A stretch of 64,000 bases of DNA from Bacteroidales bacterium. Lineage in GTDB: Bacteria; Bacteroidota; Bacteroidia; Bacteroidales; UBA12077. Position numbers and translations under genes: made by a program. Location: the NCBI GenBank assembly GCA_028282585.1, contig JANQHR010000052.1:24363-88362 (forward strand), written 5' to 3'. The notes beneath the pieces are model-generated. The model saw only the letters and a program-made list of their open reading frames with translations. It was not told the DNA's origin and searched no databases. This document shows positions 22,552 through 48,277 of the stretch, one piece after another (the stretch's first letter is position 1; the number at the start of each line of letters is the position of its first letter).

Positions 22552-24906
22552 ATGAGACAAAAGATATTTTTATTTGTTTCTTTATTCATTATTCATACAA
22601 TTTCTGTGTATACTCAGGAAAATATGAATCAAACACTTCGAGGTATTGTTGTTGATCAAGAAACCCAAATACCTCTCTCAGGAGTCAATATTGTATTAAC
22701 TGAATCAGATCCACAACAGGGAACAATAAGTAATGAAAACGGTTATTTCCGTTTTGAAAATGTTAATATTGGAAGACACACTATACAGGCTAGTTACATT
22801 GGCTACAAAACTCAAATTATAGATAACCTAACAGTTAGTTCTGCAAAAGAAAAAATTGTTAAAATTGAATTGGAAGAATCTGTAACGAAACTTGATGAGG
22901 TAGTTATAAAAGCTTCGATACAAAAAGACAAGCCAATGAATAAAATGGCCATTACTAGCGCCCGCTCTTTTACAATTGATGAAACGAACCGATATCCGGG
23001 CAGTTACGGTGATCCAGCTAGAATGGCCGCTAATTATGCAGGAGTAATGTCTGTGCGTGATAACAGAAATGATATCATTATTCGTGGAAATTCGTCCACA
23101 GGTTTGTTATGGAGGTTAGATGGAGTTGAAATTCCTAATCCAAACCATTTTGCAGCTTCAGGTACAACCGGCGGACCAATTACAATTCTGAATAATAACC
23201 TATTAACCAATTCCGATTTTATGACCGGGGCATTTCCTGCCGAATATGGAAACGCACTGGCCGGTGTTTTCGATTTAAAAATGCGAAACGGCAATAATGA
23301 AAAACGGGAACATTGGATGGAATTTGGTTATAATGGTTTGGAATTTGGAACTGAAGGACCTATTTCGAAAAAATCAAACTCTTCTTATTTAATTACCTAT
23401 AGATACTCTTTAGTTGATATTATTGATCTTTTAGGTGCCGAAGTTGAAACAACCAAATACCAGGATTTAACATTTAAGTTGAACTTTCCAATGAAAAAAG
23501 GTCGTTTGAGCTTTATTGGAATGGGAGGAACCAGCTATATTGAAATGTTTGATTCAAACGATGCGCAAGAAGACTGGTCATTTGAAAGTTGGGGAGAAGA
23601 TTTAAGTAATGGATCAAATATAGGGTCTCTTGCACTTTCTTATGTTCATTTTTTTGGAACAAAAACAAGATTGCAAAACGCTTTATCTTTGTATGGATCT
23701 GAAGTTACAACTCAAATTGATACTTTTTATAATGATCCAAACTTGATTGGAAACTGGGCAGGTGAGGAATCTTCCGAAGTAAAGGCAAGTTTTACATCGA
23801 GCCTAAATACCAAAATTAACAACAAAAATACTTTTAATTCTGGTATAAAATTCGACCGATACTTTGTTAATTTTGCAGATAGTAGCATTGATAATGGATT
23901 GTTTATTGTTAATACCGAAGTTAAAAATGAACAATTTAATCTATATCAGGCTTATGCTCAATTCAAACACAAATTTACAAATTACATTGATTTATATGCC
24001 GGTGTTAACTTTCAGTACCTGGATTTAAACAATTCATATTCGATTGAGCCAAGGCTTGGTTTCAATTGGGTAATTAATCCCCGAAACTCCTTTAAATTGG
24101 GTTATGGTTTACATAGCCAAACACAACTAAGGGTAATTTATTTCACCCAAACCCAATTACCTGATGGTTCTTATACTTATTCGAACAAAAACCTTGATTT
24201 TACGAAAAGCCATCAATTTGTAATGGGTTATGACCATTCCTTCAGTGATAATCTAAGGCTTAAACTTGAAACATATTTGCAATATTTGTATGATGTGCCA
24301 GTAAAAGAAAGCCAGCCGGAATACTCAGTTTTAAACTTTGGGGCAGAATATTTTATTGAACGTGTAGATAGTTTAGTCAATGAGGGAACAGGAAAGAATT
24401 ATGGAATAGAGTTAACCTTAGAGCGATTTCTAAATAATAATTTTTACTTTTTAATTACAGGATCACTATATGAATCAACTTACAAAGGTTATGATGGTGT
24501 AAGAAGAAATACAGCATTTAATGGTAACTTTGCCATCAATGTTTTAGGAGGCTATGAAATTCCGTTAAAAAGATATAATGCGTTTATAATTGGATTAAGA
24601 ACAACTTATGCAGGCGGAAGGCCGTATGTTCCATATGATGTGCAAGAAACTGTTGTTCAAAAGAAAGAAGTTCTTGATTGGGATAATGCATATGAAATTC
24701 AACAAGATGATTACTTCAGAATTAATTTACGATTAGGTATTAAGCGAAATAAGCCAAAATTTAATGTTGAAATATCAATGGATTTGCAGTACAGGACAAA
24801 CTATACAAGTGTTTATGAACATCGAATTGATCCATTGACAGGTGAAGTATACCATAACTATGAAATGGCATTATACCCCATGGCGAATTATAGAATTCAA
24901 TTTTAA
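22552..24906 (+). CDS. TonB-dependent receptor with CarboxypepD_reg-like N-domain
   Basis: Signal peptide, then LRGIVVDQETQIPLSGVNIVL (CarboxypepD_reg) and a plug-like region. The long beta-barrel ends in a terminal aromatic residue (YRIQF). Confidence 0.8.
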   Translation: MRQKIFLFVSLFIIHTISVYTQENMNQTLRGIVVDQETQIPLSGVNIVLTESDPQQGTISNENGYFRFENVNIGRHTIQASYIGYKTQIIDNLTVSSAKEKIVKIELEESVTKLDEVVIKASIQKDKPMNKMAITSARSFTIDETNRYPGSYGDPARMAANYAGVMSVRDNRNDIIIRGNSSTGLLWRLDGVEIPNPNHFAASGTTGGPITILNNNLLTNSDFMTGAFPAEYGNALAGVFDLKMRNGNNEKREHWMEFGYNGLEFGTEGPISKKSNSSYLITYRYSLVDIIDLLGAEVETTKYQDLTFKLNFPMKKGRLSFIGMGGTSYIEMFDSNDAQEDWSFESWGEDLSNGSNIGSLALSYVHFFGTKTRLQNALSLYGSEVTTQIDTFYNDPNLIGNWAGEESSEVKASFTSSLNTKINNKNTFNSGIKFDRYFVNFADSSIDNGLFIVNTEVKNEQFNLYQAYAQFKHKFTNYIDLYAGVNFQYLDLNNSYSIEPRLGFNWVINPRNSFKLGYGLHSQTQLRVIYFTQTQLPDGSYTYSNKNLDFTKSHQFVMGYDHSFSDNLRLKLETYLQYLYDVPVKESQPEYSVLNFGAEYFIERVDSLVNEGTGKNYGIELTLERFLNNNFYFLITGSLYESTYKGYDGVRRNTAFNGNFAINVLGGYEIPLKRYNAFIIGLRTTYAGGRPYVPYDVQETVVQKKEVLDWDNAYEIQQDDYFRINLRLGIKRNKPKFNVEISMDLQYRTNYTSVYEHRIDPLTGEVYHNYEMALYPMANYRIQF

Positions 24907-24954: not shown

Positions 24955-26295
24955 ATGAAAATACTTTTAATAAATACTCCCCGGTCACCACATAATAAGA
25001 TACTGGAATCTGCTCCGACAGAAGCAAAAAAGTTTATTCATAAAAAATTAATAGGGCCACCTCTTGGATTGATGACTGTTGCTGAAGCTGTTAAGGACTA
25101 CGATGTTGTGTTTTTTGAAACCAAGGGGGAGTATGATTTATACCCGGATACAACTCCTCTGCTTGACCAACTAGTTTTAGATTTGCTAAATAAACATAAA
25201 CCGGATATGGTTGGAACAACCACCATTGCTTCGGAATTTTATTATGCTATTGATATCTTTAAAACCGTTAAAACTTTTGATCCTGAAATTTTAACAGTTG
25301 CCGGGGGATTACATACAAGTTTATCACCAAATGATTTTACAGATCCTTGCGTTGATTTAATACTCCCAGGACAATCGGCTCATATTTTTAGAGAAGTTGT
25401 TGAAGCAAAGGAAAAAAACGAAGGTTTTGAAAATATACCAGGAATCATCATAAATAAGAACGGGAAGTTGCATAAAACTAAAACCAGAACACATCATTTC
25501 AATTCAGCAAAAAATGATTTTTTAATGCCAGACAGAAAATTAGTTGAACCATGGAGGAATAGCTATTTTGTGGGCAATGCCCCCCACCCTTCCACCTATT
25601 TATTTACCTCACTGGGATGCCCTTATAAATGTACATTTTGTTCTATATGGTGCCAGTATCAAGGTAAATATTTACAACGTGATGTAGAAAGTATTATTGC
25701 TGAATTAAAAGAAATCGACTATGAAATAGTTCGATTTGCAGATGCAAATACGATCGTTGATGAAAATTTGATTGATCATCTTTTCGACCGCATTGAACAA
25801 GAAGGAATTAAGAAAACATACATTATGGATATCAGAACTGATACAGCAGTAAATAATCCTAAACTTATTGAAAAACTGGCTAAAAATGGGTTAAAAGTTG
25901 TAATCTGTGGGTTTGAATCATTCCGTGAGGAAGAATTGAAAAAATACAATAAAAGTTCTGAGGCTAAACTTATACACCAGGCCATAGATATCTTTCATCA
26001 AAACGATATTATGTTGCGGGGGAACTATGTTATTCCAAACGATTATAACGAATCGGATTTTGAAGCTTTATCTGAATATACCAACTCCCACAGAGTTACC
26101 TACGCAGGTTACACAATACTTACCCCTATGCCTGGAACTCCTTTCTACAATGAAATTAAAGGCCAGATAATTGATTTCGACCTTTCAAAATACAATTTTT
26201 TTAATAGTGTATTAAAAACTAAACTGCCTTTAGAAAAATTTTATGAAAATGTGGGTAAACTTTGGTTAATCAAAAAAGGGACTGACGTAATTTAG
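24955..26295 (+). CDS. B12-binding-domain radical SAM protein
   Basis: CPYKCTFCSIW (CxxxCxxC) preceded by a Rossmann-like B12-binding N-domain. Confidence 0.8.
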   Translation: MKILLINTPRSPHNKILESAPTEAKKFIHKKLIGPPLGLMTVAEAVKDYDVVFFETKGEYDLYPDTTPLLDQLVLDLLNKHKPDMVGTTTIASEFYYAIDIFKTVKTFDPEILTVAGGLHTSLSPNDFTDPCVDLILPGQSAHIFREVVEAKEKNEGFENIPGIIINKNGKLHKTKTRTHHFNSAKNDFLMPDRKLVEPWRNSYFVGNAPHPSTYLFTSLGCPYKCTFCSIWCQYQGKYLQRDVESIIAELKEIDYEIVRFADANTIVDENLIDHLFDRIEQEGIKKTYIMDIRTDTAVNNPKLIEKLAKNGLKVVICGFESFREEELKKYNKSSEAKLIHQAIDIFHQNDIMLRGNYVIPNDYNESDFEALSEYTNSHRVTYAGYTILTPMPGTPFYNEIKGQIIDFDLSKYNFFNSVLKTKLPLEKFYENVGKLWLIKKGTDVI

Positions 26296-26421: not shown

Positions 26422-26799
26422 ATGAAACAAAAATTCACAATTACAGGAATTATAACGATTTTTACTATTTTACTTTTCTCTACGGGTGCCTTTGCAAACA
26501 AAACTTCAGTTACCATTGTTGCTCCTGAAAAAGCGGAAAAAGGTAGTGAAATTACTGTAAAAATAGAAGTTAAACACATGGGTAACACTAAAGGGCATCA
26601 CACTGATTGGGTATGGTTAAAAGTTAATGGTGAAGAAGTTAAAAGATGGGAGTATTCAAAAGCCGACTTGCCTGAAAGCCAAAATTTTACTTTAGAATAC
26701 AAAGTTAAAGCAGATTCAAATCTTGAAATTATAGCAGAAGGAAACTGTAACAAACACGGTTCTAAAGGCACTGACAAAGTTACTGTTAAAGTTGATTAA
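26422..26799 (+). CDS. secreted desulfoferrodoxin/SOR-like domain protein
   Basis: Signal peptide (..FSTGAFA). HMGNTKGHH and CNKHG resemble the His/His and Cys-x2-His iron ligands of neelaredoxin-type SOR. The first His ligand was not found. Confidence 0.45.
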   Translation: MKQKFTITGIITIFTILLFSTGAFANKTSVTIVAPEKAEKGSEITVKIEVKHMGNTKGHHTDWVWLKVNGEEVKRWEYSKADLPESQNFTLEYKVKADSNLEIIAEGNCNKHGSKGTDKVTVKVD

Positions 26800-27022: not shown

Positions 27023-27634
27023 ATGAAAATTTTAAAAACTGTTTTTGTTGCTCTTATTATTTTTGGGGCAATTACTGTTCAAGCACAAAAAATTAAAGTT
27101 ACGCAGGGAAGTTTAGACTTTTTAAAAGGGCAAACTGCAGTATTACTTGAGTACGACTATAGCAATATGGCTGTTGGTAAATTTGATAAGGAAGAAGATT
27201 ATATTGCTAAAAAAGTAGCTGAATATAATGAAAAAGAAGCCGGAAAAGGAGACATTTGGAAACAAAGTTGGTTTAGTGACCGGGAAGAAAGGTTTCATCC
27301 TATGTTTGAGAAACTTTTAACTGAATATACTAAGGGTACCGGATGTAAATTTTCTCAAAATTCTACGGCTGATTATAAGTTAATTTTGCGAACAACTTTT
27401 ACCGAACCTGGTTGGAACATTGGAGTTTCCAGAAGAGATGCTATGATTAATGTTGAAATTCAGTTTGTAGAAACTGCAAATCCGGAAAGCGTTTTAGCTG
27501 TAATGACTATGGATAAAATCCCTGGTCGTGGTGCAATGGGTAATGATTATGATACTGGTTACAGAATTTCTGAAGCATATGCTAAATGCGGAAAATCGTT
27601 AGGTGATTACCTAAGCAAAAAAGTTTTTAAATAG
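27023..27634 (+). CDS. hypothetical secreted protein
   Basis: Signal peptide (VFVALIIFGAITVQA). No motif recognised. Confidence 0.45.
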   Translation: MKILKTVFVALIIFGAITVQAQKIKVTQGSLDFLKGQTAVLLEYDYSNMAVGKFDKEEDYIAKKVAEYNEKEAGKGDIWKQSWFSDREERFHPMFEKLLTEYTKGTGCKFSQNSTADYKLILRTTFTEPGWNIGVSRRDAMINVEIQFVETANPESVLAVMTMDKIPGRGAMGNDYDTGYRISEAYAKCGKSLGDYLSKKVFK

Positions 27635-27655: not shown

Positions 27656-27686
27656 GTAAGGAATCTTAATAAGATTCCTTACTTTT
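27656..27686. terminator. bidirectional rho-independent terminator
   Basis: A 12-bp perfect stem, gtaaggaatctt-aat-aagattccttac, then TTTT. It lies between convergent genes and marks the left edge of the cluster. Confidence 0.75.
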
Positions 27687-28578
27687 ATATTTTATACGCT
27701 GATCTTAACTTGTAATCTCCCTTTATAAACCTGGAAATTTTCTTCAAGTCTTTTCCTGCACCACATTCATACATATCATTTACACCTAATTCAACTAATT
27801 TCTGCATGGTTTTATGCCAGCTTATCTTTTCAGTTAAATTAAAAACCAGCTCTTGTTTAATATCTTCTGCGGAAAATATTAAACGTTGATTATAAGTTGA
27901 AACTATAGGAACTTGTGGGTCATCAAATTCCAGTTTATTTAAAACGGTTTTAAAAGGAATAGCAAACCTTGAAAGGTATTTGGAATGGTAAGGTGTATCT
28001 ACTGTCAATTCTGCTGCTGTTAAGGCACCTTCCTCCTTTGACTTTTCCAATAAGATATTGATTTCCTTTTTCAAACCTGCAACAACCAAAGAATGCTCAT
28101 TATTAACATTGATAATTTCAACTGATAAAGAGCTGGTTTGTATTAGTTCCTGCACATCTAAATAAGGCAAGCCAATAATAGCTCCCATTCCATATAATCC
28201 TGTTTTTGTTAGCTCATATAATAAATGATAGGCATCAAAAATTAATTTAGCTCCGGTTTCAAATTTTATGGATTTTGAAGAATAAAGAGATGCGTAAACA
28301 CCCATGCTATATCCGGCCACAAAATCAGGAATAATACTTTTTTGCTTTAATACATCATAGTAAGTACAACTAAATGTATAAGCTAATAATTGAGAAGTTA
28401 ATTCTTCTCGAAACAAATCATTTTTATAAGTAAAATCAGGAAAGTCAATATTGATAGTTTCCGAAATTATTTTTAAGTATTTCGTAGGGTTTAAACCATT
28501 ATTTCTTAGAAAATCAATTTCTTTTCCTGTAAACTCCGTTATAAAAGCTGGAAAAATAAATGCCGTTTTGTTTTCCAT
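27685..28578 (-). CDS. FabD-like ACP S-malonyl/acyl-transferase
   Basis: Nucleophile elbow GYSMGVYASL (GxSxG), FPAF/G-rich N-terminus, 297 aa. Confidence 0.75.
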   Translation of the reverse strand: MENKTAFIFPAFITEFTGKEIDFLRNNGLNPTKYLKIISETINIDFPDFTYKNDLFREELTSQLLAYTFSCTYYDVLKQKSIIPDFVAGYSMGVYASLYSSKSIKFETGAKLIFDAYHLLYELTKTGLYGMGAIIGLPYLDVQELIQTSSLSVEIINVNNEHSLVVAGLKKEINILLEKSKEEGALTAAELTVDTPYHSKYLSRFAIPFKTVLNKLEFDDPQVPIVSTYNQRLIFSAEDIKQELVFNLTEKISWHKTMQKLVELGVNDMYECGAGKDLKKISRFIKGDYKLRSAYKI

Positions 28579-28581
28579 CTT

Positions 28582-28953
28582 TTACGTTTTTACTAAAACT
28601 ACCTTAAAAACTGCGTATACATCATTTGATTGTAAACTTGCAACTATTTTGTTAATTCCAAATTCAGACAAAATATTTTTAACAAGTTCAGATTTAATAA
28701 TCTTGAAATTTCTTTTATCAGTGAATATAACCTCTATATCCTTATAATCAACATCATTACTACTTAAAGCTTTATAAAAAGCTTCTTTAAAACAAAAGCC
28801 TTTTAAAAAGGCCTCCTTTCCGAAATATGAATAATTTTCAATTTCTTTTGCAGTAAAGATATCATATAATAAATCTGATAACTTTCCTTTTTCAAAGTAG
28901 TGCTTACTAAAACGATCTACTTCCTCTATATCAATACCACAACCGTGAATCAT
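28582..28953 (-). CDS. AcpS-type 4'-phosphopantetheinyl transferase
   Basis: MIHGCGIDIEEVDRF start motif and the later FCFKEAFYKA. Length is 123 aa. Confidence 0.75.
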   Translation of the reverse strand: MIHGCGIDIEEVDRFSKHYFEKGKLSDLLYDIFTAKEIENYSYFGKEAFLKGFCFKEAFYKALSSNDVDYKDIEVIFTDKRNFKIIKSELVKNILSEFGINKIVASLQSNDVYAVFKVVLVKT

Positions 28954-28967
28954 CAGAACAGTGTACT

Positions 28968-29270
28968 CTAAAGATCTAAGATATTGTTTTCGTGTTCAAT
29001 AATAAGCATTTGCATATCTATTAACTCGCCGATAGTTTTTACAGGGTTTTTCACTGCATATTTACCAATAGTCTTCAATTCGATATTTAAGCTATATTTC
29101 TTTTTAAATATTTCTATTAACTCAAGAAACATCAATGAATCTCCATCCAAGTCGCCAATAATATTCGATTTCTCTGATATCTCACTTACCTCAACTTCAC
29201 ATTCCTCAGCAAAAAATTCCAACACGATCTCTTTTACTTCACTCCTGGTACTTTCTGTAATTTGGGCCAT
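28968..29270 (-). CDS. acyl carrier protein
   Basis: GDLDGDSLMFLELIE contains the DSL phosphopantetheine serine motif. Length is 100 aa. Confidence 0.7.
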   Translation of the reverse strand: MAQITESTRSEVKEIVLEFFAEECEVEVSEISEKSNIIGDLDGDSLMFLELIEIFKKKYSLNIELKTIGKYAVKNPVKTIGELIDMQMLIIEHENNILDL

Positions 29271-29278: not shown

Positions 29279-29677
29279 TTATTCTGTTATTAACTTATTA
29301 ACTTCTTCTTTTGTAAGTTCTTGCCATTGTGGATTATCAAATTTTCCTTCGGTTATATCAAAACGTACCCTGAAAAAAGATTCGTGGTTAAAAGATAATT
29401 TGGTCTTTTTATCGGGTGTATGTTCGATATAAATTAATTGGTTGTAATTAACCTCATATTTATCGCAAATCTGCTTTGCCAATTTTGTATTCCACTCTGT
29501 AATTGATGTTCCCGGGTTTTCTTCAAATAAATCCGTTGCAATTACAATGGTTTGGTTTGTTTTTTTTACGATTTTTAGCCCACAAATTGAAGGCACATCC
29601 CACAATCCTTTAAAATGATAAATTTGGTCTTGATAATTATCTACTTTAGGTTTCATTTTAAAACAATTATTAAGCAA
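29279..29677 (-). CDS. hypothetical protein
   Basis: 132-aa ORF overlapping the upstream rSAM gene by 8 nt, consistent with translational coupling. No motif recognised. Confidence 0.4.
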   Translation of the reverse strand: MLNNCFKMKPKVDNYQDQIYHFKGLWDVPSICGLKIVKKTNQTIVIATDLFEENPGTSITEWNTKLAKQICDKYEVNYNQLIYIEHTPDKKTKLSFNHESFFRVRFDITEGKFDNPQWQELTKEEVNKLITE

Positions 29678-30944
29678 TTTTATGTTTTACATTCTTACCA
29701 AAACTGGTTTTAGACAAATCTTGCCTTCTCTTTCTAAATGTACCATCTTCTACCTCTCTTGAAACCACTTTCTTAAGTAATTTAAACATTTTCTCTTCTT
29801 GAGTTTCATCTTTGTAGAAGGTATCCCACGCATATTGGTATAACTCCTGTAACCTTTCGGCACTCATATGCTTAGGATGGTATACCACCTGCCCGGCATT
29901 GTAATCGTTCCAGTTTTTGTTGAAAATACGGTTCTGCTTTACAAGGTCATTATATGCCTTTGTATGAGGGAATGGTGCTAAAACAGTAAACTCCGCTAAA
30001 TCTAAATCAATCTCTAACAAGAAATCAATTAATCGTTTAATATCATCTTCTGTTTGGTTATCAAGCCCTAACAAAATAGTTCCCTCCACTCCGATTCCAT
30101 AATCATGATATTGCTTCACCCGGTTTTTTATATAATCGGATGTATCAAATACAGCTTGGTAAACATACCATGCACCAGCCTGGGCAGCTAAATCTAACAC
30201 CTCTGGTTTATCTTCGATGGTATGACTACACCATTTTTTCTTCAACGGAATCATAGCTTTAAATAAGTCTTTTTCCCACTGCGTATCTTGCGCAAGTGAA
30301 TTATCTACGATAAATAACCTATTGTTATCTATTGTTTCTAATTCTTCTATTGCTTTATCAATTGGCCTGGGCCTAAATTGTCGTCCACCTAAATATGAAA
30401 CTGCACAAGGATAGCAGCTATACTTACAACCACGAGATGCGTGGAATAAATCTACCATTTGAACGCCTTTATGATAGTATAGGTCTCTGTTATATAATTC
30501 ACGTCTTGCCGGCCCTACGATTTCAATTGGAGGTAAATCATTCATATGGTTATATACCTTTTTCAACTCACCATTCTTAAAATCTTTAAAAACTTGATCC
30601 ATATGCCCTTCGGCCTCGCCTAAGAAAACGGAGTCGGCGTGTTCCATGGTTTCTTCTGCGTGCAACATAGAAGCAATGCCTCCAAAAATAACTTTTTTGC
30701 CGCGTTTTCTATACTCATCGGCTATTGCCCACCCACGTTTTATTTGAGTAGTTAACAACATAGAAATACCAACGAAGTCAACATCATCATCAAAACGCAT
30801 TTCTTCTAAATTCTCGTCAATAAATTCTACCTCAAAATCCTCTGGTATAGTTGCTGCAAAAACAATTGCCCCATGAGGCGGCAAGTTAAAAGTTGTTTGC
30901 CCCTCAAGCTTTCTCCATTTTGGAAATACTAATTGAAATTTCAT
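29670..30944 (-). CDS. B12-binding-domain radical SAM protein
   Basis: B12 domain (FVGISMLLTT ... VIFGGIASM) followed by RGCKYSCYPCAV (CxxxCxxC). Confidence 0.8.
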   Translation of the reverse strand: MKFQLVFPKWRKLEGQTTFNLPPHGAIVFAATIPEDFEVEFIDENLEEMRFDDDVDFVGISMLLTTQIKRGWAIADEYRKRGKKVIFGGIASMLHAEETMEHADSVFLGEAEGHMDQVFKDFKNGELKKVYNHMNDLPPIEIVGPARRELYNRDLYYHKGVQMVDLFHASRGCKYSCYPCAVSYLGGRQFRPRPIDKAIEELETIDNNRLFIVDNSLAQDTQWEKDLFKAMIPLKKKWCSHTIEDKPEVLDLAAQAGAWYVYQAVFDTSDYIKNRVKQYHDYGIGVEGTILLGLDNQTEDDIKRLIDFLLEIDLDLAEFTVLAPFPHTKAYNDLVKQNRIFNKNWNDYNAGQVVYHPKHMSAERLQELYQYAWDTFYKDETQEEKMFKLLKKVVSREVEDGTFRKRRQDLSKTSFGKNVKHKIA

Positions 30945-30999: not shown

Positions 31000-32088
31000 C
31001 TATTCCAAACTATAATTTTTCTGCTCCATCCACCCCTTTAGGATATTGTTGATTTCCAGCCTATCTGCTTCCGGAATTGTGTATTTATTTTTTTGGTAAT
31101 TCATTACCGAAATAAGGAATTCTTTTATTTGTTTCTCAAATTGTTCAGAAAATTCAACATTAAAGTGTTTATATAATTGCTTTAATTCCTTTAAAGGATC
31201 CTTTTCCAAATCCTCGAACTTTAATTCATAATACCTATCATTTGGTAAAACTTTAGAATCATCCTCTAATTTGTTTACCATCAAATTAAGCACCTCGCTT
31301 ACATCTTTAGTTGTTGGTTTTACCCACTTGTTATTCATAGCATTTTGCGTGCCAACAATATCCCACATTCGCACAGTTGATGGCACAACTTTATAAGGAT
31401 GCCTTATAATATGGATATACCGGGCTTTTGGAAAAATTTCATTTAAAACTTCTAACCTTAACGAATGAAAAGGATTTTTGATTAATATGGTTTTATTATT
31501 GCCAAGTGTTAACTTTTTATAAAAATAGATAAGTGCCTCTTTCCATTCTTTTAATTTTTCACCATACGGTAAAAATCCAGGAAAATCATTTAAAAAATAT
31601 GTTTTCTTTTTAGGAAAAATAACTCTTTCCAATGGAGAATAACCGGAAATCCTAAATAAGGCATACTCATCCTCAAGGGGCTCATCCATGCTTAACTTAA
31701 CCTGGTCCATAGGCCTTGTTCCTTTTAAAGCTCTTCCCATAATAGGTTCATAAGATTTTCTGGATGTTAAAAAGCTATCAGGAATTGACCCCTGAAAAAC
31801 ATTGGATGTAACCAAGTTTGAGTCAAGAGCTAAAAGTTGGTGTAAAAAAGTACTTCCTGTTCGCCAATGGCCTACTATAATAATTGGGTCTTCAGCTAAT
31901 ATGTGTGTCTCTATTTTATCTTTATAGATTGATATTTCTTTTCGGTGAAAAATAGAAGCCCAAATACCATTCTGAAAAAGAAATAAAAATCTTACCAAAT
32001 ACTTTGGACGTATAGCTATTCCATTTTTCAGAAGTAATTTTATGAACCTGGAGAGCCTCATCCCCGCTATCAGGTAAGCACTTTTCAT
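31000..32088 (-). CDS. PAPS-dependent sulfotransferase family protein
   Basis: 5'-phosphosulfate loop VGHWRTGSTFLHQLL and 3'-phosphate motif IIRHPYKVVPS. Confidence 0.75.
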   Translation of the reverse strand: MKSAYLIAGMRLSRFIKLLLKNGIAIRPKYLVRFLFLFQNGIWASIFHRKEISIYKDKIETHILAEDPIIIVGHWRTGSTFLHQLLALDSNLVTSNVFQGSIPDSFLTSRKSYEPIMGRALKGTRPMDQVKLSMDEPLEDEYALFRISGYSPLERVIFPKKKTYFLNDFPGFLPYGEKLKEWKEALIYFYKKLTLGNNKTILIKNPFHSLRLEVLNEIFPKARYIHIIRHPYKVVPSTVRMWDIVGTQNAMNNKWVKPTTKDVSEVLNLMVNKLEDDSKVLPNDRYYELKFEDLEKDPLKELKQLYKHFNVEFSEQFEKQIKEFLISVMNYQKNKYTIPEADRLEINNILKGWMEQKNYSLE

Positions 32089-32127: not shown

Positions 32128-32403
32128 TTATTCTGATTTACTTTTAATAAAATCTGCAATAGAATTTACATTCTTCAAAACTTCGCGAGCAAGGTTTTGG
32201 TCATCAATGCGTACCTTAAAATCGCGTTGCACTGCCATAACAAGCTCTATTGCATCAATTGAGTCTAATCCTAAAGTATTTTCTCCTCCGAAAAGTGGTA
32301 AATCATCCTCAATGTCCTCTGGCGTAACGTCTTGCATATTTAAAGTCTCAACGATCATTTTTTTAATATCCGCCTTCAAATCAGTACCAATATTTTCTCC
32401 CAT
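32128..32403 (-). CDS. acyl carrier protein
   Basis: LGLDSIDAIELV motif. Length is 91 aa. Confidence 0.8.
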   Translation of the reverse strand: MGENIGTDLKADIKKMIVETLNMQDVTPEDIEDDLPLFGGENTLGLDSIDAIELVMAVQRDFKVRIDDQNLAREVLKNVNSIADFIKSKSE

Positions 32404-32415: not shown

Positions 32416-33429
32416 TTAAATATTATTTACTACTAATTTAAGTTCTTTATAAAACGCTTCTTCAGCATCTGCTCTTTCATTAATCATCTGGCCAAGTTCT
32501 TGAAGTTTTTCAGGGCCTAAGTCCCTATTCTTTCCTATCTTGGCTGCAAAGTAAGAAATATTTCTCCAACCATCTCCAATTTCCATCATCTTTTTTGACA
32601 TATCCTCTAATCCTTTACTTTGAAGTATTTCGGAAGCTTGCCTGAGGAAAGTTGCATATAAAAATCTAAATCCACCTCCACCGGTTCCTTGGTCCTCAAG
32701 AAATACATTAATTTTCATTATTTCATGCGAAAGATGGTCAATATCTCTGGTTAATTTAGGCCAGCCTTGCAATTTTTTTGCAAAAGTTCTAATACCCCGT
32801 ACTCCGATAAACGGTGGTTGTATCCCGATCATATTATTAATGGTATTCTTTAATGCAATCGGAATTAGCTTATAGTAATCAACGCTTTCCGGAACAGACT
32901 CAATGTAATATCTAAATCCTTTTGGTGCTAAATAACCACCTGCAAATCTTGCTTTTCTGAGATTATCTTTATGAATTTTTGCTAATTTAGGAAAGTAACT
33001 ATCACTAACTAAATATTCATCATCTTCTTTTCCTACAATTGTTATAAAATGTATATTAGCATGAACCCTTTCCCATTGTGGAATATAATCCATATAGTAA
33101 AAATCAACCTGGCATGCCACTGGAATATTCTTTGAAATCAGTTGATCTAACTCTTGTTCTGCCTCATCCTGACTTTTGAAACGCTTTATATTGAATTTAA
33201 TATCAGTTCGTTTTGCAATCTTTTTTCTAAGCTTACCTGGTTTTGTTCTTAAAATAAACATCGGAAAATTTAAGTTGGGAGTATGGTTTAAATATCCAAA
33301 ATACAATCCGCTTCCAAGTCCAAACATCATTGGTTCTGTAACTTCCAGACCTTTATGTTTTAATAATGCTGTTAAGGTACCGGACTCGCAATGAGCCGCC
33401 ATATTGTGGTTAAAAGAATCTATAATCAT
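32416..33429 (-). CDS. BtrH N-terminal-domain (papain-like Cys-His-Asp) protein
   Basis: N-terminal AAHCESGTLTALLKHKGL, NIHFITIVG ... YLVSDS, and a C-terminal helical domain (GTGGGGFRFLYATFL). It is a 337-aa paralog of 41762-42775. Confidence 0.65.
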   Translation of the reverse strand: MIIDSFNHNMAAHCESGTLTALLKHKGLEVTEPMMFGLGSGLYFGYLNHTPNLNFPMFILRTKPGKLRKKIAKRTDIKFNIKRFKSQDEAEQELDQLISKNIPVACQVDFYYMDYIPQWERVHANIHFITIVGKEDDEYLVSDSYFPKLAKIHKDNLRKARFAGGYLAPKGFRYYIESVPESVDYYKLIPIALKNTINNMIGIQPPFIGVRGIRTFAKKLQGWPKLTRDIDHLSHEIMKINVFLEDQGTGGGGFRFLYATFLRQASEILQSKGLEDMSKKMMEIGDGWRNISYFAAKIGKNRDLGPEKLQELGQMINERADAEEAFYKELKLVVNNI

Positions 33430-33926
33430 TTTTTATTTAATTCAATTTTTGTAATTACAACAAATGGATTTTCTGTTCTGGTTTGTTTTAAAACAATAGG
33501 TTGCTTTGATTGATCCGTTCCAACTTTATTCTCATTACCTTCAATTACGATTGTTTGCAGTAAATTAGAAACAGGAATATCAAATGCATAAGCATACTTT
33601 TTCAAATCAGATAATTTAGCTTTTTTAAAACCATCCACTTTTTGATGTTGTTTCACCTTTCTAACCGAAACCTTTGTCCTCCTTGATAATTCTACATCAC
33701 TAAAATCATGAATAGTTTTATAAAAATATATTGGTGTTATTTCATTTTTCTTTAACTTTTCAAGCAATGAGTTTCTAAGCTTTACTGTTTTTTCCCAGAA
33801 ATCGTCAAGATAATTCTTGGATATATAAGAACCAGTTTGGATTGGTCCATATGAGCCATCTTCTTTTTCAACATACATAATCAACTGTTGTGGCTCAAAA
33901 TCAATATAAGCATCTTTTTCTTTCAT
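33426..33926 (-). CDS. XRE-like helix-turn-helix protein (putative cluster regulator)
   Basis: DVELSRRTKVSVRKVKQHQK ... LSDLKKYAYAFDIPVSNL fits the HTH_XRE pattern. It is a paralog of 41218-41619 and overlaps the BtrH-like gene by 4 nt. Confidence 0.5.
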   Translation of the reverse strand: MKEKDAYIDFEPQQLIMYVEKEDGSYGPIQTGSYISKNYLDDFWEKTVKLRNSLLEKLKKNEITPIYFYKTIHDFSDVELSRRTKVSVRKVKQHQKVDGFKKAKLSDLKKYAYAFDIPVSNLLQTIVIEGNENKVGTDQSKQPIVLKQTRTENPFVVITKIELNKK

Positions 33927-33983
33927 TATAGTTTGTTTTGAAGGAAATTAGGCACACTAAAATAGTTCAAATAAAGCAATCGC

Positions 33984-33991
33984 CAAAATTA
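33984..33991 (-). promoter_or_regulatory. candidate -7 promoter box (TAATTTTG) for the minus arm
   Basis: Minus-strand taattttg fits TAnnTTTG and ends 57 nt upstream of the ATG at 33926. Confidence 0.3.
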
Positions 33992-34049
33992 AATAAATTA
34001 AACAAATTATAAATTTGATTGTTAATGAAAATATATGGGCCTTTCAAAA

Positions 34050-34082
34050 AATTGTGCAAAGTTTTCAACTTTTTACACAATT
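34050..34082. promoter_or_regulatory. near-perfect palindrome in divergent promoter region (candidate operator)
   Basis: aattgtgcaaagtt-ttc-aactttttacacaatt. The outer AATTGTG/CACAATT and inner aaagtt/aacttt arms pair with a 2-nt bulge. Confidence 0.4.
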
Positions 34083-34164
34083 AAATTTCATGTAATTTTT
34101 AGACTATTTGATAAAAATATTCGCTAAAACAAATGGTATTCTAAGGAATATTAAAACTATTTAT

Positions 34165-34172
34165 TAAATTTG
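34165..34172 (+). promoter_or_regulatory. candidate -7 promoter box (TAAATTTG) for the plus arm
   Basis: Fits TAnnTTTG and ends 71 nt upstream of the ATG at 34244. Confidence 0.3.
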
Positions 34173-34243
34173 CATTCTTATAAAAACGGCATAAGAACTA
34201 ATAGGTTTATTTAAACCACTTTAACGCAAACCAAAGGATAGAA

Positions 34244-40745: not shown

Positions 40746-41204
40746 AATGATTAAATGCATAAATGATTAAATAAAGAATCACATGAATAAAATGACAGAA
40801 AAGGAAATATTTATAGAGAATTTAAAGAAACGAACCAAAAAATTTGCTGTTGATGTTATTTTATTTTGTAATTCACTTAAGGTGTGCAAAGCTTCTGACG
40901 TTATAACTTATCAACTTGTAAAATCTGCAACATCAACTGGGGCTAATTATCGTGCAGCATGCAGAGCTAGGTCAAAAAAGGAATTTTTTAGCAAAATTTG
41001 CATTGTTGTTGAAGAGGCTGATGAATCTGAATATTGGTTAGAACTTATAAATGATACTAATTTATCGAATGATAAAAATGAATTATTAAGGCTTTATAAT
41101 GAAGCAAATGAAATTACAAAGATAATGACAAAGGCGAAAAACACATCTTACGTAAGTAAAACTTAATACATTTGATAATTTTAGCATTTACTCATTTAAG
41201 CATT
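40746..41204 (+). mobile_element. four-helix-bundle gene cassette 1 with 27-nt imperfect inverted flanks
   Basis: 40746-40772 aatgattaaatgcataaatgattaaat matches the reverse complement of 41178-41204 (aatgcttaaatgagtaaatgctaaaat) at 22 of 27 positions. Mobility itself is inferred. Confidence 0.45.
40783..41166 (+). CDS. four-helix-bundle protein (23S rRNA intervening-sequence protein / Avd-like family)
   Basis: Family core QLVKSATSTGANYRAACRARSKKEFFSKICIVVEEADESEYWLELI. Length is 127 aa. Confidence 0.85.
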   Translation: MNKMTEKEIFIENLKKRTKKFAVDVILFCNSLKVCKASDVITYQLVKSATSTGANYRAACRARSKKEFFSKICIVVEEADESEYWLELINDTNLSNDKNELLRLYNEANEITKIMTKAKNTSYVSKT

Positions 41205-41217: not shown

Positions 41218-41619
41218 ATGGAAAAAGATAAAGTACCACAAGATGAAGGGATAACGGGGGGAATAACCCGAGAAGTTCAATATGCTGTTGATAAAGACGG
41301 CAAATATGTAAAAACCTTCAGTAAAGGTTGGGAACCTAAAAATATAGTCAACGAACTTGCATGGGAAGATATACAAGAATTGGTTGATGAAGCTGATGAA
41401 AAAATAAAAGCAGGCAAAGCAAGCCCAATTATGCATTACATGGCTAAAAACCAAATGAATGTTACGTTGCTTGCCGACTATGTAGAATTATCCAAATGGA
41501 AGGTTAAGAAACACCTGAAACCAAAAGGATTCAAGAACCTAAAGCCAGAACAATTAGAAAATTATGCGAAAGTATTCAATATTAGCGTAGGTGAGTTAGC
41601 TAACTTTAAGCCTGAATAA
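41218..41619 (+). CDS. XRE-like helix-turn-helix protein (paralog of 33426-33926)
   Basis: MNVTLLADYVELSKWKVKKHLK ... LENYAKVFNISVGEL. The track start at 41203 is TTG inside the cassette flank; ATG 41218 is preferred. Confidence 0.5.
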   Translation: MEKDKVPQDEGITGGITREVQYAVDKDGKYVKTFSKGWEPKNIVNELAWEDIQELVDEADEKIKAGKASPIMHYMAKNQMNVTLLADYVELSKWKVKKHLKPKGFKNLKPEQLENYAKVFNISVGELANFKPE

Positions 41620-41761: not shown

Positions 41762-42775
41762 ATGAAACTTGATTTCGAACATATACCTGCAGGGCACTGC
41801 GAAAATGGAGTAATTTCAAGCCTGTTAAAATATCATGGATTAAACTTAAGCGAAGCCATGATTTTTGGAATTGGCAGTGGTTTCTTTTTTGCATACATGC
41901 CATTTGTAAAAGTAAATGGAATTCCATTAGCTTCATTCCGCCCTGTGCCTGGAATGATATTTTCACGCGCTGCCAAACGGCTAGGAATTAAAATGAAAAA
42001 ACAATCTTTTAGGAAACAACCTAAAAGAGCGATGGATGAACTGGATAAGGTTCTTGAAAAGAAATTACCGGTTGGAGTTCAAACCGGAGTATACCACCTA
42101 ACTTACTTCCCTCCCGCTTACCGATTTCATTTTAATGCGCACAACTTAACCGTTTTTGGCAAAGAAAATGGAGTATACCATATAAGTGACCCTGTTATGG
42201 AATACGCTACTACGTTAACTTCTGAAGAGCTTAAAAAAGCAAGGTATGCTAAAGGCCCATTAAGCCCTAATGGTAAAATGTATTACCCAATTGATATTCC
42301 TGAAAATATCGAATTAAAACCTGCAATTATCAAAGGTATTAAACAAACTTGCGATTGGATGTTGACTATCCCGGTTCCATTATTTGGTGTAAAAGGAATT
42401 AGGTACCTATCTAAACGAGTTCGTAAATGGCCGGATAAATTAGGAGCAAGAAAAGCAGCTTCATATTTAGCGCAATTGGTTAGAATGCTTGAAGAAATTG
42501 GTACCGGAGGTGCTGGGTTCCGTTTTATTTACGCTGCATTCTTACAAGAAGTATCAGAAGTAATGGAAGACCAACGATATTTTGAACTTTCCAAGAAAAT
42601 GACAGCAATTGGTGATATGTGGAGAAATTTCTCTTCATTGGCTGCGCAAACTTGTAAAGGGCGTTCTTCAGACCCGGACGGTTATAATACAGTGGCAAAT
42701 CTTATGTTAGAGATTGCTGATGATGAAGAAAGGTTTTTTACTGAATTAAAACAACTAGTCAATGCAGGAAAATAA
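41762..42775 (+). CDS. BtrH N-terminal-domain (papain-like Cys-His-Asp) protein
   Basis: AGHCENGVISSLLKYHGL, NAHNLTVFG ... YHISDP, GTGGAGFRFIYAAFL. Length is 337 aa. It overlaps the ABC ATPase gene by 14 nt. Confidence 0.65.
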   Translation: MKLDFEHIPAGHCENGVISSLLKYHGLNLSEAMIFGIGSGFFFAYMPFVKVNGIPLASFRPVPGMIFSRAAKRLGIKMKKQSFRKQPKRAMDELDKVLEKKLPVGVQTGVYHLTYFPPAYRFHFNAHNLTVFGKENGVYHISDPVMEYATTLTSEELKKARYAKGPLSPNGKMYYPIDIPENIELKPAIIKGIKQTCDWMLTIPVPLFGVKGIRYLSKRVRKWPDKLGARKAASYLAQLVRMLEEIGTGGAGFRFIYAAFLQEVSEVMEDQRYFELSKKMTAIGDMWRNFSSLAAQTCKGRSSDPDGYNTVANLMLEIADDEERFFTELKQLVNAGK

Positions 42776-43520
42776 TCATATCATTGAATTAAAATACCTG
42801 ACTAAATATTACAAAGGTTCAAGTGTTCCTGCTATTGATAACATAAACCTTAACATTGATAAAGGGGAAATATATGGCTTACTTGGCCCTAATGGAGCAG
42901 GTAAAACAACTACGATTTCAATTCTCTGTGGGCTATTTGGTGCAACATCCGGAAATGTTTTTATCGATGGAATGGAATACCAGCATTCCAGAGAAAAAAT
43001 TAAAAGCATTATTGGGATAGTACCACAAGAAATAGCGCTTTATCCATCATTAACTGCCAAGGAAAACCTTACATTTTTTGGCCATATGTATGGCCTAAAA
43101 GGCAAAGAATTGAAAAATAGAATCAATGAATGCCTTGAATTATTTGGCTTAGAGAAAAATGCAAACAGAAGAATTAAAACCTTTTCGGGCGGAATGAAAA
43201 GAAGAATAAACCTCATAGCAGGTATTCTTCATAAACCCAAGATTATATATTTAGACGAACCTACAGTTGGTGTTGACGTGCAATCACGTAATGTGATTTT
43301 AGAACATTTGCGTGCTATCAATAAAGAAGGAACAACCATTATATACACATCTCATTATATGGAGGAAGCAGAAAATTTCTGTTCTCGTGTAGCTATCATA
43401 GATAAGGGAAATATTCTTACCGAAGGTAAACCTAAAGAACTAATTGATGGCAAAGAAGAATATACAGATTTAGAAAATATTTTCTTACATATAACAGGAA
43501 GAGCATTACGCGACGAATAA
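42762..43520 (+). CDS. ABC transporter ATP-binding protein
   Basis: Walker A GPNGAGKTT, signature FSGGMKRR, Walker B IIYLDEPT. Confidence 0.9.
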   Translation: MQENNHIIELKYLTKYYKGSSVPAIDNINLNIDKGEIYGLLGPNGAGKTTTISILCGLFGATSGNVFIDGMEYQHSREKIKSIIGIVPQEIALYPSLTAKENLTFFGHMYGLKGKELKNRINECLELFGLEKNANRRIKTFSGGMKRRINLIAGILHKPKIIYLDEPTVGVDVQSRNVILEHLRAINKEGTTIIYTSHYMEEAENFCSRVAIIDKGNILTEGKPKELIDGKEEYTDLENIFLHITGRALRDE

Positions 43521-43774: not shown

Positions 43775-45058
43775 ATGATACGATTAATATCATCCATATA
43801 TAAAGAGTTTTTAGTTCTTATTAGAGATCGAGCAGGATTGGCAATTTTATTTATTATGCCTTTAGTTCTTATACTCATAATGACTTTAATTCAAGATGCA
43901 ACTTTCAGGACGGTAAAAGAAGTTGACATCTCAATGATTCTAGTAAATAATGATAGGGATAGTTTAGGCGAAGCTATTAGCCAAGGATTATACGATTCAG
44001 AGTTTTTTACTATAGTCGAAGAAATTGATGGAGAAAAAATCACCGATTCTTTAGCAAAAGAATTAGTTGCAAGAGGCGATTATAAAATTGGAATTATTAT
44101 TCCGGAAAGAGCAACAGATGCTATTCGAGGCAATGTTAATGCTTTAATCAATAAATCTTTCAAATCATTTAATGTTCCGGGAGTAAAGAAAAGAACCAGG
44201 AAAAGTACAATTGATATTACTATTTATATTGACCCTGCAACAAGCCAGTCTTTTAAAAATATGGTAATGAGTTCCTTAAAGGAGTTTACTTCACAGCTAG
44301 AGATTGAAATGTTTTTTAAGAACTTTTCGGAAGCCATGGCTCAAATGATGCCAGGCCAAAAACCTATAAAATTTGAAAGCTTTGAAACCATAAAGTACCA
44401 GGAAGTTTATGCTTCAACAACAAAGGATGAAATGCTTCCAAATTCGGTTCAACATAATGTACCTGCATGGACTATGTTCGCAATGTTCTTTATTGTACTG
44501 CCACTAGCTGGAAACATTATTAAAGAACGGGATGATGGAAGTGCTTTCCGTTTAAAAACAATGCCAGGGTCTTTTGTTACAGTTATGTTTAGTAAGATTT
44601 TTGTATTTCTAGGTGTAGCATTTTTACAGTTTATTTTAATGCTAATGGTTGGTGTTTACATCATGCCACTAATGGGATTGCCACAGTTGGAAATTGGCCC
44701 TCATAAAATTGCATTAGGTGTTATGGCAATTGCTTCCGGGTTAGCCGCAACAGGTTACGGAGTTGCTATTGGAACTATCGCAACTACCCATGAACAAGCA
44801 GCCACTTTTGGTGCTGTTTCAATTATCATTTTTGCAGCTTTAGGCGGCATTTGGGTTCCGGTATATGTAATGCCTCATACAATAAGAATTATCAGCCAGT
44901 TCTCTCCTCTTCATTGGGGGTTAAATGGCTTTTATGATATATTCCTTCGTGGCGGTGATATTTCTGTAGTAATCGCTGAAACTGCAAAATTGTTGCTGTT
45001 TTTTGTAATCATGCTATTAATAGCAGTTGCTTATAATAAGTACACAAAAACCAAATAA
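43775..45058 (+). CDS. ABC-2-type transporter permease
   Basis: N-terminal TM helix, a large extracytoplasmic loop, then five C-terminal TM helices. It pairs with the ATPase at 42762. Confidence 0.8.
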   Translation: MIRLISSIYKEFLVLIRDRAGLAILFIMPLVLILIMTLIQDATFRTVKEVDISMILVNNDRDSLGEAISQGLYDSEFFTIVEEIDGEKITDSLAKELVARGDYKIGIIIPERATDAIRGNVNALINKSFKSFNVPGVKKRTRKSTIDITIYIDPATSQSFKNMVMSSLKEFTSQLEIEMFFKNFSEAMAQMMPGQKPIKFESFETIKYQEVYASTTKDEMLPNSVQHNVPAWTMFAMFFIVLPLAGNIIKERDDGSAFRLKTMPGSFVTVMFSKIFVFLGVAFLQFILMLMVGVYIMPLMGLPQLEIGPHKIALGVMAIASGLAATGYGVAIGTIATTHEQAATFGAVSIIIFAALGGIWVPVYVMPHTIRIISQFSPLHWGLNGFYDIFLRGGDISVVIAETAKLLLFFVIMLLIAVAYNKYTKTK

Positions 45059-48221: not shown

Positions 48222-48277
48222 AAAGAAAATACCCTTGAATGGACTTTAGTCCCTTAATTTACTTAATTACCACGTTT

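Follow-up and report, generated by a model that had tools for sequence, protein, structure and literature searches.

The 64,000-nt stretch of contig JANQHR010000052.1 analysed here (the window; Bacteroidales bacterium, assembly GCA_028282585.1) carries, in DNA of ~32% GC, what Pfam and NCBIfam annotation identify as a flexirubin-like aryl-polyene lipid cluster. Each of its two divergent arms harbors a gene for a small helix-turn-helix (HTH) protein followed by a gene for a BtrH-family enzyme. The pair on the right (plus-strand) arm was annotated and named before this analysis: it is the DarG/DarH pair of the Chitinophaga pinensis and Flavobacterium johnsoniae flexirubin clusters, for which NCBIfam holds the models NF053536 ('DarG family dialkylresorcinol biosynthesis protein') and NF053550 ('BtrH-related acyltransferase DarH'). 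We denote its members DarG_R and DarH_R, and those of the pair on the left (minus-strand) arm DarG_L and DarH_L. What is new is a left clade that is distinct, widespread and set in a genomic context of its own, an acyl carrier protein (ACP) as the third member of the module, a near-universal and often overlapping arrangement of darG and darH, and a structural link from DarH to the enzymes CtaG, CcbD and AziU3/U2.

Two divergent DarG-DarH pairs

The two enzymes could be aligned end-to-end by BLASTP with 125/331 identities (38%; E 2e-81), and the small proteins over 108 residues with 33 identities (31%; E 1e-12). A preliminary description of this DNA, made from the sequence alone, had regarded the two gene pairs as paralogs, noting that the large proteins are both 337 aa long and that the small ones align over about 100 aa; the open reading frame (ORF) check and the alignments bear this out, the similarities being far beyond chance. 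The motifs that it quoted for the large proteins are likewise all found (HCESG/HCENG, NIHFITIVG/NAHNLTVFG, SDS/SDP, GTGGGGFRF/GTGGAGFRF and DGWRNIS/DMWRNFS). For DarG_R, the ATG at 41218 was preferred over the mechanically called TTG at 41203 because the resulting length of 133 aa is the modal length of its clade and the N-terminus fits the clade consensus. The darG_L stop and the darH_L start overlap by 4 nt, and the spacer between darG_R and darH_R is 142 nt, an outlier for the right clade.

The family was followed across 83 loci, comprising 80 from a scan of one genome per species and three from an exact-protein look-up. These fall into two clades, within which identity ranges from 40 to 90% and between which it is at most 45% for DarH and at most 33% for DarG. 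A recent duplication or gene conversion is ruled out by the 38% and 31% identities and by the separate clades with their own contexts. A DarG-like ORF lies directly upstream of darH on the same strand at 82/83 loci, in several phyla, so that the adjacency of HTH protein and BtrH_N enzyme pointed out in the preliminary description is indeed kept outside this genome; at the exception (L041), the DarH match starts only at DarH residue 82. The stop of darG and the start of darH overlap (-1 to -11 nt) at 25 of 40 left and 21 of 43 right loci, and the gap is short at 34/40 left (up to 11 nt) and 35/43 right loci (up to 9 nt). The type of DarG agrees with the type of DarH at every paired locus, and pairwise identities of the two proteins correlate within each clade (r = 0.85 and 0.94).

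Fold and active site of DarH

Both copies of DarH contain the Pfam domains BtrH_N and DUF4872 in N-to-C order, above gathering thresholds. DarH_L scores 139.9 bits (cutoff 29.7, E 8e-41) and 153.5 bits (cutoff 28, E 6e-45), and DarH_R 158.5 bits (E 1e-46) and 199.8 bits (E 4e-59), respectively. The NCBIfam equivalog model NF053550 (DarH_acyl, cutoff 300) is matched by DarH_R with 461.6 bits and by DarH_L with a marginal 320.7 bits. Equivalent function is doubtful for DarH_L, since the right-clade loci of the Flavobacterium/Chitinophaga type, for which DarH_R is invariably the better match, offer a different gene context. Naming the left copy 'DarH', as the Prokaryotic Genome Annotation Pipeline would do though DarA/DarB never co-occur with it, is likely an over-annotation.

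A single-sequence DarH search against the PDB found nothing at E up to 1, and an alignment profile found a weak match to CtaG (E 0.003) in which His127 and Asp143 align with CtaG His128 and Asp144; a fold search was therefore needed. The model of DarH_L is confident (mean predicted local distance difference test score, pLDDT, of 88; predicted template-modelling score, pTM, of 0.88) and consists of a papain-like N-domain and a helical DUF4872 C-domain. Foldseek searches with this model against the PDB gave full-length matches only to AziU3/U2, CtaG and CcbD, with TM-scores of 0.63-0.77 at a probability of 1.00: AziU3/U2 (E 3e-11, TM-score 0.66), CtaG (E 2e-9, TM-score 0.70-0.77) and CcbD, including its complex with a peptidyl carrier protein (PCP) (E 2e-7 to 1e-5). 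The lower matches are C39-type peptidases aligned over the N-domain alone.

In the model, helix 14-25 begins at Cys14, strand 127-135 begins at His127 and Asp143 comes just after the adjacent strand 138-142, a predicted placement of the triad that corresponds to a papain-like arrangement. The corresponding cysteine of DarH_R is Cys13. The preliminary description had given these proteins a papain-like fold and had staked it on a triad of suitable geometry; BtrH_N plus DUF4872, the two-domain fold and an invariant Cys-His-Asp are what we find, and Cys14-His127-Asp143 agree in sequence and in their modelled topological placement. Residues invariant in 83/83 DarH proteins are H13-C14-E15, N125, H127, S142-D143 and E245, together with the motifs GTGGxGFR and GDxWR. 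Another 11 positions are conserved within both clades with residues that differ between them. Positions 109 and 113 are among these and lie in a loop that matches the carrier-protein-binding region of CtaG, and so are positions 244, 246 and 247, which flank the invariant GTGG motif. These clade-differing positions are candidate specificity determinants.

HTH core and N-terminal segment of DarG

DarG_R matches the Pfam family HTH_26 (25 bits, cutoff 22), and DarG_L matches no Pfam family. On the NCBIfam subfamily model NF053536 (DarG_fam, cutoff 70) and equivalog model NF053545 (flexirubin_DarG, cutoff 170), DarG_R scores 157 and 155.3 bits, and DarG_L 42.8 and 47.2 bits, under both cutoffs but still homologous to DarG_R by BLASTP and equivalently positioned. 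The AlphaFold model of DarG_L has a five-helix core (residues 65-123) with pLDDT >90, preceded by a long helix (37-59) and by a short hairpin with pLDDT <50, and it ends in a C-terminal β-hairpin extension that is specific to the left clade. Foldseek superimposes the core on SinR, C.BclI, HipB, the 434 repressor and DdrO with root-mean-square deviations of 1.5-2.5 Å over ~60 residues, those for SinR, C.BclI and the 434 repressor being 1.5-2.4 Å over 58-66 residues, and with target TM-scores of at most 0.79, and the modelled core is thus a genuine XRE-type (Cro/C1) HTH. Several public annotations name DarG orthologs Xre regulators, and HTH_26 matches some of the orthologs. The median isoelectric point (pI) of right-clade DarG proteins is near neutral, at 6.7.

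The N-terminal segment (~residues 14-46) of DarG is strongly conserved, with the left-clade motif MYVEKEDGSYGPIQTGSYISKNYLDDF; its conservation equals that of the HTH, and exceeds it in the left clade. Tyr18 is present in at least 80% of the proteins of both clades among the 83 loci, and both Tyr18 and Asp23 are invariant in a 23-sequence alignment (A1). No relatives of this segment or of the left-clade C-terminal hairpin were detected. A conserved but poorly modelled N-terminus fits a segment that folds on a partner.

Clustered at 50%, the DarG family has 491 representatives. The 150 that score best are nearly all stand-alone proteins of 130-170 aa, and no fusion of DarG to DarH was found among these 150. 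Two proteins considered as DarG fusions (P0298 and P0344) were rejected as generic multi-HTH repeat proteins. One 446-aa protein from a metagenome of the Joint Genome Institute (JGI), P0328 (L084, 423-1763), is a fusion of an N-terminal radical-S-adenosylmethionine (radical-SAM) domain with a full right-type DarG-like sequence, whose N-terminal segment is also present. Its contig is only 2.2 kb long, and the next gene encodes a SAM methyltransferase-like protein, not DarH.

Distribution and gene neighborhood of the two clades

Left-type loci number ~41, with 46-86% identity, and occur in Bacteroidales, Lentimicrobiaceae, Prolixibacteraceae, Draconibacterium, Rikenellaceae, Fibrobacterota, Spirochaetota/Leptospirales and one Chlorobiota-labelled metagenome-assembled genome (MAG). 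The ~42 right-type loci, with 36-41% identity to the left query, occur in Flavobacterium, Maribacter, Aquimarina, Chitinophaga, Parapedobacter and Desulfobacterota. Protein searches gave more than 100 sequences of the DarH_L type at 55-93% identity and 165 of the DarG_L type. Both pairs co-occur in L001, L002 and L004, in the same divergent arrangement as in the window, and in L015, a distant Bacteroidales MAG, and several long contigs hold orthologs of both DarG types. Contigs of a 'Klebsiella pneumoniae' MAG (L043) and a 'Thiohalospira sp.' MAG bear Bacteroidota-type DarG/DarH, which also concerns the proteins P0174 and P0439; these labels are probably binning or labelling errors in public records.

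The neighborhoods of the two clades differ sharply. An ACP gene lies directly 3' of darH at 36/38 left and 2/41 right loci, and a sulfotransferase gene lies within 2.5 kb downstream at 29/34 left loci and at none of 40 right ones. A gene like that of the left-arm B12-binding/radical-SAM protein (rSAM_L) occurs within 8 kb at 17 of the 25 fully flanked left loci and at 2 of 34 right loci. DarA or DarB, on the other hand, is encoded within 8 kb at 33/34 right and 0/25 left loci, and an ATPase of the ATP-binding cassette (ABC) type directly downstream at 32/41 right and 0/38 left loci. In 15 of 36 left-clade loci, genes for an ABC ATPase and permease lie directly upstream. Judged from these gene contexts, each clade probably has a substrate of its own and works in a separate sub-pathway. 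The preliminary description had proposed two specificity variants of one transfer step, each with its own HTH partner. Two old lineages, each with a co-diverging partner, do exist, but the different contexts call for a broader description than 'variants of one transfer step'.

The module also extends beyond the two genes that were first thought to be duplicated: the pair is duplicated, but so is an ACP gene, and the duplicated unit is a triple of DarG, DarH and a DarC-type ACP. The ACP encoded directly downstream of DarH_L (ACP1_L) and the 84-aa DarC-type ACP of the right arm are reciprocal best matches among the four ACPs of the window, with 38% identity over 78 aa (E 6e-22), a divergence equal to that of the DarH pair. 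In Flavobacteria and Chitinophaga, it is the ACP after DarG-H-I-J and before the ketosynthase (DarC/DarD) that matches ACP1_L best, so that DarH probably has the DarC-type ACP as its cognate carrier. DarH is basic throughout (pI ~9.3-9.5) and the four ACPs of the window are acidic (pI 4.1-4.4).

The sulfotransferase of the left arm has as its nearest solved relatives by sequence the olefin synthase (OLS) sulfotransferase (PDB identifier 4gox), the CurM sulfotransferase (4gbm), and 2z6v and 2zq5, both deposited as putative uncharacterized proteins. The OLS and CurM enzymes sulfonate the β-hydroxyacyl chain on an ACP, which creates a leaving group. The likeness of the left-arm protein to solved sulfotransferases is limited to residues ~196-326, the region that binds 3'-phosphoadenosine 5'-phosphosulfate (PAPS), and its substrate is therefore not established by likeness. 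No report of a sulfotransferase-linked aryl-polyene cluster was found in the literature searched.

Comparison with known systems

The right pair resembles the flexirubin clusters in the gene order of small protein, BtrH-like enzyme, ABC ATPase and permease. The gene table of C. pinensis lists DarG as a hypothetical protein, DarH as a BtrH_N protein and DarI/J as ABC ATPase and permease (PMC12968099, Table 3); the F. johnsoniae equivalents of DarG/H/I/J are Fjoh_1098 to Fjoh_1095 (PMC12968099; PMC3992019), and Azoarcus sp. BH72 has a comparable trio in which darD encodes a conserved hypothetical protein, darE a BtrH-like peptidase and darF an ABC ATPase (PMC3949708). Unlike these clusters, the window encodes no DarA/DarB within its 64 kb and has a TIGR04072 B12-binding/radical-SAM protein in their position. 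The left pair departs further, as a sister clade in a context of ACP, sulfotransferase and radical-SAM protein instead of a directly downstream ABC exporter and DarA/DarB.

Among solved structures, CtaG (PDB identifier 9QUZ and related entries) is alike in its two domains, in the triad (C11/H128/D144 vs C14/H127/D143 of DarH) and in an adjacent carrier-protein gene, but it is only ~14% identical, lacks an HTH partner and joins two PCP-bound substrates by an amide bond, and the DarH motifs E245, GTGGxGFR and GDxWR lie outside the HMMER profile alignment with it. CtaG has been described as a papain-like ligase with a Cys11-His128-Asp144 triad that acts by a ping-pong mechanism via an acyl-Cys intermediate, and BtrH and AsbE have been assigned to its class (PMC12865890). 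The lincosamide condensation enzyme CcbD/LmbD (7YN1, 9DKS) has a DarH-like fold, a catalytic cysteine and a solved complex with a PCP domain, whereas it is 12-13% identical to DarH, lacks an HTH partner and makes an amide bond to an amino sugar. BtrH of the butirosin and AsbE of the petrobactin pathway share the Pfam domains of DarH, for which a similar ACP-bound donor chemistry may be inferred. BtrH and AsbE acylate free amines (ribostamycin and spermidine), and we know of no DarG-like partner for either.

The aziridine synthase AziU3/U2 (7WUW, 8GS1), which has the best Foldseek E-value, is heteromeric and acts after a sulfotransferase, recalling the sulfotransferase of the left arm. It forms aziridine by sulfate elimination according to Kurosawa et al. 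(2022) as cited in PMC9570651, and is considered functionally unrelated to the CtaG class, catalyzing sulfate displacement and not acyl transfer (PMC12865890). The DarG model had no match to AziU chains among the 50 PDB matches listed. For DarG, the nearest comparison is with the partner-binding XRE/Cro-C1 proteins (SinR, HipB, MqsA, DdrO and the C-proteins), which share its HTH core and a gene position upstream of and overlapping the partner gene; the DarG N-terminal segment and the left-clade hairpin have no detected relatives, and we found no conserved operator for DarG.

Proposed function and its alternatives

Flexirubin-type and aryl-polyene lipids form some of the most widespread families of bacterial secondary metabolites. 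Neither PMC3949708 nor PMC3992019 establishes which enzyme joins the polyene and its lipid or alcohol partner, and DarH is a strong candidate for this attachment, as suggested by the fold and invariant triad that it has in common with the mechanistically solved CtaG. We hypothesize that the window holds two old modules of DarG, DarH and a DarC-type ACP, in which DarH is a thiotemplated transacylase, DarG is its obligate partner and the left module acts on a different substrate, and we give this reading a probability of roughly 0.6. An acyl chain would move from the cognate holo-ACP to Cys14 (Cys13 in the right copy), activated by His127 and Asp143, to form an acyl-enzyme intermediate that an acceptor nucleophile would resolve in ping-pong fashion; we infer the acyl transfer itself, the identities of donor and acceptor and the contact between DarG and DarH. 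In canonical flexirubin producers, the candidate step for DarH is the joining of the polyene acyl chain to the dialkylresorcinol (DAR), or a related transfer in the DAR branch. DarG would be made from the same message as DarH, usually by translational coupling, would contact DarH through its conserved N-terminal segment and may bind DNA as well; a layout like that of MqsA, in which the partner-binding element is N-terminal and the HTH C-terminal, would permit both. DarH_R would work with the DarI/J-type ABC exporter, and DarH_L with its own ACP, the CurM/OLS-like sulfotransferase and B12-binding/radical-SAM enzymes. This context of the left module suggests a different acyl substrate for DarH_L, which is probably sulfated or sulfate-activated. 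The near-constant and often coupled HTH partner, the ACP within the module and the sulfotransferase-linked sister clade in uncultured anaerobes make this a directly testable question.

Several observations count against this hypothesis. Beyond gene tables, no enzymatic or genetic studies of any DarG or DarH were found in the literature searched. The basic residues of the DarG recognition helix are conserved in what is a DNA-binding fold, no fusion to DarH was found among the best 150 of 491 family representatives, and the correlated divergence of DarG and DarH could reflect shared inheritance alone. In restriction-modification systems, the gene of the C-protein, a regulator, may overlap its target gene. 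To our knowledge, the characterized relatives of DarH all form amides with amine acceptors, and flexirubin holds an ester. Since DarA/DarB are missing from the window and from left-clade loci, a dialkylresorcinol acceptor cannot apply here unless it is encoded elsewhere.

DarG could instead be a conventional XRE transcription factor that represses or activates its own operon, perhaps in response to a pathway intermediate, with DarH working alone and the adjacency reflecting operon architecture. The superposition of its core on SinR, C.BclI, the 434 repressor and DdrO, the HTH_26 match of DarG_R and some orthologs, the public Xre annotations, the basic recognition helix, and the position of darG_L as the first gene after a divergent promoter region with a palindrome are all what such a regulator would have. 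Yet DarG is attached to one enzyme gene at 82/83 loci across two clades, several phyla and varied layouts, often in mid-operon; the palindrome is not kept where proteins are still 81-86% identical; DarG of the right clade has a near-neutral pI; a DarG-like domain is fused to a radical-SAM enzyme in one protein; and the conserved N-terminal segment is left unexplained. We regard a purely regulatory role as a serious though less favored rival, DarG being best explained as an obligate partner of DarH and not as a general regulator of the cluster. A pair of repressor and protease of the ImmR/ImmA or DdrO/IrrE type, in which DarH would cleave or inactivate DarG to switch the cluster on, would also account for an XRE-fold gene directly upstream of and overlapping a protease-fold gene, and DdrO is among the structural matches; but the characterized proteins with the full two-domain DarH fold are all biosynthetic enzymes, the invariant motifs of the helical domain, the basic pI and the constant ACP/ABC neighbors point to acyl-carrier chemistry, and ImmA and IrrE, as metalloproteases, have a fold unrelated to that of DarH, all of which makes this idea highly improbable.

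The left arm allows two further readings that concern its chemistry. As an off-loading or eliminating enzyme, DarH_L would release a chain whose hydroxyl the sulfotransferase has sulfonated, with loss of sulfate, either by the ACP-sulfotransferase-thioesterase logic of CurM/OLS to give an alkene or by an AziU3/U2-like displacement to give a ring. The kinship of the sulfotransferase to the 'activating' OLS and CurM enzymes, the DarH-ACP-sulfotransferase order kept in 29/34 loci and the AziU3/U2 match with the best E-value (3e-11) are in keeping with this, though both clades have one and the same triad and set of C-domain motifs, an argument for shared chemistry, the TM-scores favor CtaG over AziU3/U2, and the likeness of the sulfotransferase is restricted to its PAPS-binding region; hydrolysis via an acyl-Cys would also suit the transacylase model, and we consider elimination unlikely. 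More tentatively than the partner model, but with better prospects than elimination, the left-arm set may constitute an undescribed lipid-tailoring system for a sulfated or sulfate-activated acyl product, in which DarG is an HTH-fold accessory subunit and not a transcription factor. The set would include DarG_L, DarH_L, the ACP, the sulfotransferase, the B12-binding/radical-SAM protein and the conserved 132-aa protein, often with a CarboxypepD_reg outer-membrane protein and an ABC exporter, in anaerobic Bacteroidales, Fibrobacterota and Spirochaetota, where DarH would need DarG for recognition of the carrier protein or the acceptor. If this is true, DarG would be the first such subunit known for thiotemplated ligases of the CtaG/BtrH class.

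The divergent intergenic region

The region between darG_L and the first gene of the right arm holds a palindrome, AATTGTGCAAA-N11-TTTACACAATT (34050-34082), which is real and occurs once in the window. The preliminary description had suggested it as a binding site for the small proteins, and this does not stand for a conserved operator: a search of the 83 loci found no counterpart, and in an alignment with L004 and L001 (A3; DarH 86% and 81% identical, respectively) the palindrome coincides with the stretch of the orthologous intergenic region that is conserved least. It may still be a lineage-specific site. The palindrome lies between two TAnnTTTG-type boxes, each within a block of sequence conserved in the window, L004 and L001, one at 34165-34172 (+), 72 nt before the start of the ammonia-lyase gene, and the other at 33984-33991 (-), ~58 nt before the start of darG_L. 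These boxes fit the -7 promoter consensus of Bacteroidetes and are probably the -7 elements of the two divergent operons.

Gene content of the cluster

The features of both arms are collected in Table 1. The nearest relatives of the sequence are MAGs of Bacteroidales/Marinilabiliales, and the sequencing runs that hold the window sequence are DNA only, from a coral metagenome, with no expression run among them. The gene set for the polyene part of flexirubin/aryl-polyene clusters is complete in the window, and its order is colinear with that of Flavobacterium loci. Searches of the 64-kb window with DarA and DarB of F. tistrianum found no DarA homolog and no credible DarB, the best match being a ketosynthase with 17.9 bits; DarA/DarB could be encoded elsewhere in the genome. 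The TIGR04072 protein scores 418 bits against a cutoff of 360 on a 'lipid biosynthesis' model of the ladderane-cluster type, and its gene sits between those of the LpxL-like acyltransferase and the dehydratase, where Flavobacterium flexirubin clusters carry darA/darB. The order of the three genes at the end of the left arm is repeated in L001, L002 and L004.

Table 1. Features of the two arms, with positions counted from the first nucleotide of the window
Feature	Position	Strand	Remark
DarG-like protein, left clade (DarG_L)	33426-33926	-	166 aa; ORF and paralogy to right copy
DarH-like BtrH-family enzyme, left clade (DarH_L)	32416-33429	-	337 aa
ACP directly downstream of DarH_L (ACP1_L)	32128-32403	-	PP-binding; presumed acyl donor for DarH_L
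PAPS-type sulfotransferase	31000-32088	-	Sulfotransfer_3, E 4e-31
B12-binding/radical-SAM-like protein (rSAM_L)	29670-30944	-	Frequent left-clade companion
Conserved 132-aa protein, no known family	29279-29677	-	Frequent left-clade companion
Second ACP of left arm	28968-29270	-	Left-arm end
AcpS-type phosphopantetheinyl transferase	28582-28953	-	Left-arm end
FabD-like acyltransferase	27685-28578	-	Left-arm end
Left arm, in order: DarG-like, DarH-like, ACP, sulfotransferase, B12/radical-SAM-like, 132-aa protein, second ACP, AcpS-type phosphopantetheinyl transferase, FabD-like acyltransferase	33926 down to 27685	-	
Divergent intergenic region, darG_L / tyrosine ammonia-lyase gene	33927-34243		Two TAnnTTTG-type boxes and palindrome
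Right arm, start: tyrosine/histidine ammonia-lyase (TAL/HAL), FabG, ketosynthase, ACP, LpxL-like acyltransferase	from 34244	+	
Right arm, next: B12-binding/radical-SAM protein TIGR04072	38951-40327	+	Followed by FabZ-like dehydratase
Right arm, middle: DarG, DarH, ABC ATPase, ABC permease		+	
DarG, right clade (DarG_R)	41218-41619	+	133 aa from ATG 41218
DarH, right clade, canonical BtrH-related (DarH_R)	41762-42775	+	337 aa
DarI/DarJ-type ABC transporter, ATPase	42762-43520	+	Start overlaps darH_R end
DarI/DarJ-type ABC transporter, ABC-2 permease	43775-45058	+	
Right arm, then: thioesterase, ketosynthase, ACP, ketosynthase/chain-length factor		+	
DarC-type ACP	48914-49168	+	84 aa; counterpart of left-arm ACP
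Ketosynthase after DarC-type ACP	49190-50389	+	
Right arm, then: deacetylase, LolA, LolB2_flexi, FabA-like protein, family 2 glycosyltransferase		+	LolB2_flexi: NF053540, 145 bits
Right arm, end: MMPL-acyltransferase-methyltransferase fusion, flavin adenine dinucleotide (FAD) oxidase, AAT-like hydrolase		+	

Three different B12-binding/radical-SAM proteins are encoded within 16 kb, rSAM_L and the TIGR04072 protein being joined by an HpnR/BchE-like protein at 24955-26295. The last of these, together with a CarboxypepD_reg/Plug outer-membrane protein (22552-24906), recurs beside left-clade modules in distant genomes. Between the left arm and these radical-SAM and outer-membrane genes lie a desulfoferrodoxin-like 125-aa protein (26422-26799) and a 203-aa protein without family match (27023-27634), which have the same placement in L001 and L002.

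The right arm also contains four genes for four-helix-bundle proteins of PF05635 ('23S rRNA-intervening sequence protein'; 40783-41166, 45107-45496, 46090-46473 and 55189-55557) and one IS200-like Y1 transposase gene (47738-48172), which fill intergenic gaps of the biosynthetic operon and are all on the operon strand. The gap upstream of darG_R holds a DDE transposase gene in L001 and is empty in L002; because its contents differ among the window, L001 and L002, this gap is an insertion hot spot. Neither the surroundings of the inserted four-helix-bundle genes nor the spacer between darG_R and darH_R yielded convincing shared repeats. After the Y1 transposase, a 222-aa ORF (48239-48907) without a Pfam match shows only a faint likeness (23 bits) to FabF, limited to the N-terminal half of the latter; its product might be a degenerate or non-catalytic ketosynthase-like protein.

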